The notes beneath the pieces are model-generated. The model saw only the letters and a program-made list of their open reading frames with translations, searched no databases and was not told the DNA's origin. From a virus (Duplodnaviria; Heunggongvirae; Uroviricota; Caudoviricetes), in IMG/VR virus record IMGVR_UViG_2713896909_000008: DNA of 8,052 bases; one strand, written 5' to 3'. Made by a program: the position numbers and the translations under genes. Positions 7,130 through 7,903 of this stretch are shown piece by piece. How positions within the stretch are numbered: the first letter of the stretch is position 1; the number at the start of each line of letters is the position of its first letter.

Positions 7130-7903
7130 ATGGATATTACTGAGTTTCCTTCTGGAGTAATTGAACACCTTGGCTGGTATGTATACCGATTGATTGATCC
7201 GAGGGACGGAAGCACCTTCTATGTAGGGAAAGGCAAAGGTAACCGCGTATTTGCCCATATGCGCGGTGAAGTGGCAGCGACTGATGATGACGAGTTACTG
7301 AGCAACAAGCTAAAGCAAATTAGAGAAATAAGGTTAGCAGGACTTGAGGTTATCCATGTCATCCATCGACACGGAATGACTGATGAAAAGACGGCGTACG
7401 AAGTTGAAGCAGCACTTATTGATGCCTACCCTGGGTTAACGAATATCATGAATGGTGCTGGCAGCAATGAATTCGGCGCCGCGCATGTCAAAGAGTTGAT
7501 AGCAACATATCAACCCGAAACCATAACATTTCATCATAAAGCATTAATGATTTCCGTTAACAGAAGTGCAAAGGATTCAGAGCTTTATGATGCGGTTCGA
7601 TTTAGCTGGCGCATTAATGTCTCTCGCGCCAGCCAAGCAGAAGTCATTCTTGCTACTGTAAGGGGGATCGTTCGAGGGGTTTTCATTGCTGATAAATGGC
7701 TCAAATCAACACGTGAAAATTTCCCTACGATGAAATACTGGGACGAGGATCCGGACTTTGAGGCAACACAAAGTTCTCGCTATGGTTTTGAAGGTCGAGA
7801 AGCCCCACCTGAAATAGCAAATCTTTATCTTGGAAAAAAAATACCAGATGAATTAAGAAAAAAAGGAGCTATGTCCCCGGTCCGTTACTCACCTAATTTT
7901 TGA
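7130..7903 (+). CDS. GIY-YIG nuclease-like domain protein, 257 aa, with an uncharacterised C-terminal region
   Basis: N-terminus [29 protein letters not shown] fits the GIY-x10-YIG motif with a following conserved Arg, then downstream Glu and Asn. Preferred start ATG 7130; the track start at 7079 adds 17 unlikely residues. AT-rich upstream region. Lies on the far side of the att core. Confidence 0.55.

Follow-up and report, generated by a model that had tools for sequence, protein, structure and literature searches.

A predicted CMoRE/PD-T4-3 GIY-YIG restriction endonuclease gene beside the tRNA-Ser attachment core of a tandem-prophage junction

The window, the whole 8,052-nt stretch of DNA that was analysed, contains a junction of two tandem prophages, as the initial annotation had proposed: a lambdoid arm lies to the left of an attachment (att) core, and the prophage that carries the gene under study lies to the right of it. 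The features are as follows.

697-1104: candidate repressor of the cI/LexA type
5601-5810: DUF4224 gene in the excisionase position
5810-6835: tyrosine integrase, intact in the window
6888..6953, - strand: 3' 66 nt of tRNA-Ser(CGA) (serU), the att core common to both tandem prophages (cmscan tRNA clan, MB15 alignment)
6954..7129, + strand: AT-rich upstream region, presumed native promoter and leader (from its composition, 33% GC)
7130..7903, + strand: predicted CMoRE/PD-T4-3 gene (PADLOC PDLC04031, PDB 9U75, WP_000355484.1, PHROG 5356)
7130..7465, + strand: N-terminal GIYxY-YIG nuclease domain, residues ~1-112 with an approximate boundary (PF22945; Y17, Y19, Y31, R39, H43, E93, N105)
7283..7294, + strand: four consecutive acidic residues, D52-D53-D54-E55, of the putative autoinhibitory lid loop (read from the sequence)
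7496..7900, + strand: predicted modified-cytosine-sensing (5hmC/5ghmC) C-terminal domain, residues ~123-257 with an approximate boundary, including Y127
7963..7974, - strand: last 12 nt of the invertase gene pinE (stop and three codons), of the same prophage as the CMoRE gene (transferred from L001 pinE 13128..13682; alignment A3)
7975..8052, - strand: IS911-type element of the IS3 family, terminal repeat (TGAAGTGG...) and transposase C-terminus (megablast; alignment A3)

The left six-sevenths of the window (1-6872) is a lambdoid (Rac/Qin-like) prophage arm. Strain Z1323HEC0067 has the same lambdoid arrangement left of the core, and the integrase is frameshifted there. Within this arm, a run of 61 N (masked or unknown bases) at 3901-3961 splits the reading frame into ORFs 3198..4058 and 4049..5548; at the matching position, Z1323HEC0067 has a single 2.47-kb gene annotated 'exonuclease'. 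The tRNA-Ser fragment at the core keeps the anticodon stem-loop, the variable arm, the T arm and CCA, and cmscan matches it to the tRNA clan over the anticodon, variable and T arms. The fragment lacks the D arm and the 5' acceptor strand, which is why ARAGORN reports no complete tRNA here. Over positions 6873-6953, the sequence matches the tRNA-Ser pieces of phages vB_EcoM-606R7 and vB_EcoS-689R5 at 100% identity. The variable arm of the window copy contains a compensatory G-C pair (GTGGGGGCAACTCCAC) where strain MB15 has A-T in both its serU copies, the intact one and the partial one (GTAGGGGCAACTCTAC), which suggests that the window copy arrived with the attP of the adjacent lambdoid phage.

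In MB15, the gene belongs to a prophage that looks intact and is integrated at serU. The genes there run in the order mtfA, intact serU, three hypothetical genes, the integrase, early genes, head genes of the HK97 type, genes for a contractile tail and baseplate, an invertible tail-fibre segment, pinE, CMoRE, a partial tRNA-Ser and yodB. This makes the CMoRE gene the terminal gene of a myovirus-type prophage of ~39 kb, placed as cargo between the tail-fibre invertase gene and the att site. The upstream arm of the window (6954..7129) is identical to the MB15 prophage arm across the aligned part, and the ATG at 7130 lies 176 bp beyond the tRNA-Ser fragment. This agrees with the original placement of the gene immediately past an att core and at the edge of a second foreign segment, since it lies just inside the att site of a prophage. 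At least 80% of the stretch 6836-8052 is present in 807 of 5426 complete E. coli genomes (~15%).

On the right-hand side, the description of the gene as standing alone is roughly correct: its sole neighbour is the end of the convergent pinE gene (last 12 nt), which is cut by IS911 at 7975. The IS911-family ends were matched by megablast, and the IS911 copy of strain 7/2 was used in alignment A3. The element end at 7975 (TGAAGTGGTCAACAAAAACTGGCC...) places the insertion in the fourth-last codon of pinE, so the tail-fibre invertase of this strain lacks its final few residues.

The gene lies in a + strand ORF (7079..7903) that opens at TTG, and the internal ATG at 7130 gives a protein of 257 aa followed by a stop codon. 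We consider ATG 7130 to be the true start because MDITEF, or the equivalent residues, opens the RefSeq CDS, the crystallised protein and the jumbo-phage homologues alike; the 257-aa ORF at 7130..7903 is real. The AT-rich setting ascribed to the gene applies to its flanks (33% GC for 6954-7129 and 31% for 6836-6887) but not to the gene itself, whose GC content of 43.8% is near the window mean of 45.2%. A Shine-Dalgarno-like or GGAG-like motif is not visible by eye before ATG 7130 (...ttcatagatattgcaaaATG), in agreement with the weak ribosome-binding site reported initially. A simple promoter scan found no consensus sigma-70 promoter on the + strand upstream of the gene, and its promoter is therefore a presumed one. 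The promoter/terminator scan also found no terminator between the gene and the convergent pinE.

The initial annotation could not place the protein in a characterised family. Our searches show that there is one, PD-T4-3/CMoRE, identified both by a PADLOC model and by PDB matches. The match to PADLOC PDLC04031 (PD-T4-3) spans the entire protein (E 2.4e-140, residues 1-256 of 256), and the match to PHROG 5356 is also full length. A phmmer search against the PDB matched only two sequences, E. coli O157:H7 CMoRE (9U75/9U8D, E 3.7e-172) and the protein of E. coli APEC O1 (9U7U/9U7Z, E 1.1e-150), and the deposited title of both is 'GIY-YIG domain-containing protein'. The protein is identical to 9U75 at 253 of 257 positions (98.4%) and shares 85.2% identity with 9U7U. 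The protein and the native part of the crystallised chains (257 residues) align from the first residue to the last, with no extra N- or C-terminal domain, so that length and two-domain architecture are the same as in the O157:H7 (9U75, 9U8D) and APEC O1 (9U7U, 9U7Z) enzymes. It is also identical to RefSeq WP_000355484.1, which is named only 'LEM-3-like GIY-YIG domain-containing protein' or 'hypothetical protein', and no NCBIfam model matches it. A single-sequence AlphaFold2 model of the protein has a mean pLDDT of 38.4, too low for a fold search. Judged by these matches, the gene product is a two-domain, single-component (type I architecture) member of CMoRE/PD-T4-3.

For comparison among more distant relatives, alignment A1 was built from the protein, the APEC O1 sequence and four full-length homologues of virulent jumbo phages (39-46% identity). 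A profile search of the PDB with A1 (E <= 10) returned CMoRE entries only, and no UvrC, I-TevI or other GIY-YIG structures. The four phages, Serratia Kodama and Yubaba, Pantoea Survivor and Pseudomonas OBP, have genomes of 255-285 kb. Their proteins keep the catalytic residues and Y127; the run of four acidic residues is absent and the autoinhibitory loop is shorter. A protein-level search of a phage collection returned these distant jumbo-phage homologues only, and a DNA-level search of the collection matched the tRNA-Ser core only, the gene being absent.

The N-terminal GIY-YIG core, called plausible at first, is a significant match: residues 28-110 match Pfam PF22945 (LEM-3-like GIY-YIG) with 54.2 bits (cutoff 27), while the generic model PF01541 stays below threshold (13.9 bits against 22.6). 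The GIYxY-YIG motif reads G15-W-Y17-V-Y19 ... F30-Y31-V-G33. The three tyrosines Y17, Y19 and Y31 are named as functional GIYxY-YIG residues in the published work, in which the third tyrosine extends the GIY-YIG motif (PMC12923530). The same study calls the catalytic Arg and Glu conserved, with no residue numbers in its text (PMC12923530), and we assign R39, E93 and N105, by motif position, as the putative catalytic Arg, Glu and Asn. Y17, Y19, Y31, R39, H43, E93, N105 and Y127 are all invariant in A1; the GIY-YIG reading would have been undermined by loss of the catalytic Arg and Glu, and R39 and E93 are both retained in homologues of 39-46% identity. V92 and L96, on which the tetramer assembly of CMoRE depends (PMC12923530), are also present as tetramer-interface residues. 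Every residue named in PMC12923530 occurs in the protein.

As noted initially, the C-terminal part is unrecognised by general domain models, and ~130-150 residues have no Pfam match at E <= 1. By similarity to the crystallised enzymes, this sequence is the predicted 5hmC/5ghmC reader domain. In the co-crystal with 5hm-dCTP, the main-chain O of Y127 hydrogen-bonds 5hmC, and the authors found no sequence or structural homologue of the reader domain (PMC12923530). Between residues 123 and 257, two substitutions, Q169K and N197H, separate the protein from 9U75.

The remaining two of the four substitutions relative to 9U75 (T51A, E55D, Q169K and N197H) lie in or beside the acidic run. A 15-residue acidic loop covers the active site in the crystal structures, and replacing its four acidic residues with alanine (4A) causes specificity to be lost or relaxed and makes the enzyme toxic (PMC12923530). 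The acidic run is DDDD in the O157:H7 protein and DDDE in that of APEC O1, the latter being the same as in the protein studied here. Both E55 and N197 are shared with the APEC O1 protein, which is active (PMC12923530). Position 169 is variable among the homologues, and T51, in the autoinhibitory loop and bordering the acidic run, is A in O157:H7 and V in APEC O1. The protein thus differs from O157:H7 CMoRE by four conservative or variable-site substitutions, none of which falls on a residue named as functional in PMC12923530.

The function of the family is already known: it was found in 2022, and by January 2026 its mechanism, its pattern of cleavage and its crystal structures were all in print, the biochemistry and structures in 2025-2026 (PMC12366544, PMC12923530). 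PD-T4-3 is reported as recovered by functional selection (Vassallo et al., 2022; PMC9519451) and, as that work is cited in PMC12923530, as a single gene with a GIY-YIG domain from E. coli ECOR68 that gives direct rather than abortive immunity. Liu et al. (2026) renamed it CMoRE and studied the O157:H7, APEC O1 and Klebsiella proteins (PMC12923530). CMoRE lowers the plating of T2, T4 and T6 by ~5 logs; on their native promoters, the O157:H7 and Klebsiella genes give ~5 logs of protection and the APEC O1 gene protects weakly (PMC12923530). Cells with CMoRE grow normally at an MOI above 1, and in vivo T4 DNA is depleted while host DNA is untouched (PMC12923530). In vitro, DNA with 5hmC or 5ghmC is cut and DNA with C or 5mC is not, with Mg2+ and Mn2+ as the preferred cofactors; T4(hmC) is still sensitive and T4(C) is resistant (PMC12923530). 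The enzyme cuts in a CN11/N9G pattern, giving 2-nt 3' overhangs, and needs two modified cytosines; across T4, cleavage has no strict sequence requirement and depends on cytosine modification (PMC12923530). Two independent studies fit these findings. A Capnocytophaga homologue (48% identity) degrades T4 DNA when it is modified and leaves unmodified T4 DNA alone (PMC12366544). In the native host NILS69, deletion of the CMoRE gene leads to higher plating of T-even phages, and complementation in K-12 with the CMoRE gene is also reported (10.1101/2024.12.20.629700).

We consider it very probable (about 95%) that the gene in the window follows this published mechanism, with reading of modified cytosines, cleavage between the sites, autoinhibition by the loop and direct immunity. 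The mechanism is drawn from experiments on the 98.4%-identical protein. The protein would act as a tetramer, a dimer of dimers, whose C-terminal domain would bind DNA with 5-hydroxymethylated or glucosyl-hydroxymethylated cytosines. One dimer would read two modified cytosines ~21 bp apart, and the N-terminal GIYxY-YIG domain, requiring Mg2+ or Mn2+, would cut between them at CN11/N9G and leave 2-nt 3' overhangs. The 15-residue acidic loop over the active site would exclude ordinary and 5mC DNA, and the host chromosome would therefore be spared. The expected outcome is direct, non-abortive immunity to T2, T4, T6 and related T-even phages. For this particular allele, we infer modification-dependent cleavage of hmC/ghmC DNA and defence against T-even phages, and it is probably expressed and active in its own strain. 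Its expression in the source strain could be low, as the APEC O1 gene protected weakly from its native promoter. The start codon without a Shine-Dalgarno sequence, the scan that found no consensus promoter and the loop residue T51, which neither crystallised protein has, likewise count against certainty about this allele.

The type IV enzymes PvuRts1I and AbaSI cut at a fixed distance between a pair of modified cytosines, with short 3' overhangs as the result, and PvuRts1I combines a PD-(D/E)XK nuclease with an SRA-like reader. CMoRE resembles them in being specific for 5hmC/5ghmC and in having separate nuclease and reader domains (PMC12923530). Unlike PvuRts1I, it has a GIY-YIG nuclease and a reader for which its authors found no homologue (PMC12923530). 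No sequence match to PvuRts1I or AbaSI was seen in the PDB searches, and the two groups, alike in how they work, are not the same family. The closest structural neighbour of the nuclease domain is the N-terminal GIY-YIG domain of UvrC (PDB 1YCZ), in which the catalytic Tyr, Arg and Glu are conserved (PMC12923530). UvrC, a housekeeping repair enzyme, has no counterpart of the third tyrosine (Y17 of GIYxY) or of the 15-residue acidic lid loop, and the C-terminal reader is missing from it as well. Similarity to UvrC was detected neither by the single-sequence nor by the profile search of the PDB, and the comparison rests on PMC12923530 because the sequence searches did not reach UvrC.

The three roles first offered for the gene were defence effector, homing-type nuclease and anti-defence factor. 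The first stands, as PD-T4-3/CMoRE, and nothing in the analysis supports either of the others. It is possible, though rather unlikely, that the activity of this allele, or of the family in its native prophage, goes beyond the restriction of hmC/ghmC DNA, through action on other hypermodified bases or offensive use by jumbo phages. The same-family Capnocytophaga homologue also cuts momylated Mu DNA, degrading Mu DNA at high concentration (48% identity; PMC12366544), and CMoRE is weakly active on arabinosyl-hmC phages. The jumbo-phage homologues without the acidic safety loop might be weapons against co-infecting T-even-like phages and not host defences. Neither of these wider ideas affects the identity of the gene in the window.

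A role as an anti-defence or other phage-benefit factor, or the status of a silent remnant unexpressed in this strain, is highly improbable. The failure to find a Shine-Dalgarno sequence or a consensus promoter would fit such a remnant, as would the erosion of nearby prophage genes, with IS911 inserted in pinE. In NILS69, moreover, one T-even phage escaped the native-level system and did not escape the over-expressed one (10.1101/2024.12.20.629700). However, the reading frame is unbroken, its product is the same, residue for residue, as a protein that many genomes retain, and no anti-defence activity has been reported for any member of the family. The ~5 logs of protection by the O157:H7 and Klebsiella genes from native promoters (PMC12923530) and the raised T-even plating upon deletion in NILS69 (10.1101/2024.12.20.629700) also speak against these readings.

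Even less credible is a free-standing GIY-YIG homing endonuclease of the Seg or I-TevI type, which would cut gene-less relatives to spread its own gene. Such enzymes have the same GIY-YIG catalytic fold as CMoRE, and phages carry them as stand-alone genes. Three observations could be read this way: the only match to such enzymes, a marginal one to PHROG 314 'homing endonuclease' (E 0.0021), the annotation of the phage OBP homologue as 'putative homing nuclease', and the position of the gene alone in AT-rich DNA at the edge of an element. However, the full-length matches are to PD-T4-3/CMoRE and not to homing enzymes. [quoted passage not shown] Pfam gives no match to homing-endonuclease DNA-binding domains in the protein, an intron or intein context is absent, and the place of the gene next to pinE and att is constant across hundreds of genomes. 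The homing reading is largely refuted by the published cleavage-site mapping. A housekeeping (UvrC/Cho-like) reading was rejected, as no housekeeping homologue was found, and in this respect too the initial GIY-YIG reading is not refuted.

With the gene identified as a predicted CMoRE/PD-T4-3 member, WP_000355484.1 can be renamed as a type IV hmC/ghmC-dependent restriction endonuclease (CMoRE/PD-T4-3). The discovery value is small, as the published protein differs at only 4 of 257 residues. Carriage of CMoRE predicts lower susceptibility to T-even-type phages, which bears on the choice of phages for therapy.

Two further observations concern the prophage that carries the gene. At its other end in MB15 (L003), three hypothetical genes lie at 11183-13434, between the intact tRNA-Ser and the integrase; this stretch forms a second cargo site, where a further defence module might be found. 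In E. coli MS 69-1, the CMoRE-pinE stretch is found on the chromosome and also on the 64,057-bp record NZ_CP146678.1 (positions 29022-30124), where the second copy could be an excised or circular form of the prophage, or an assembly artefact.
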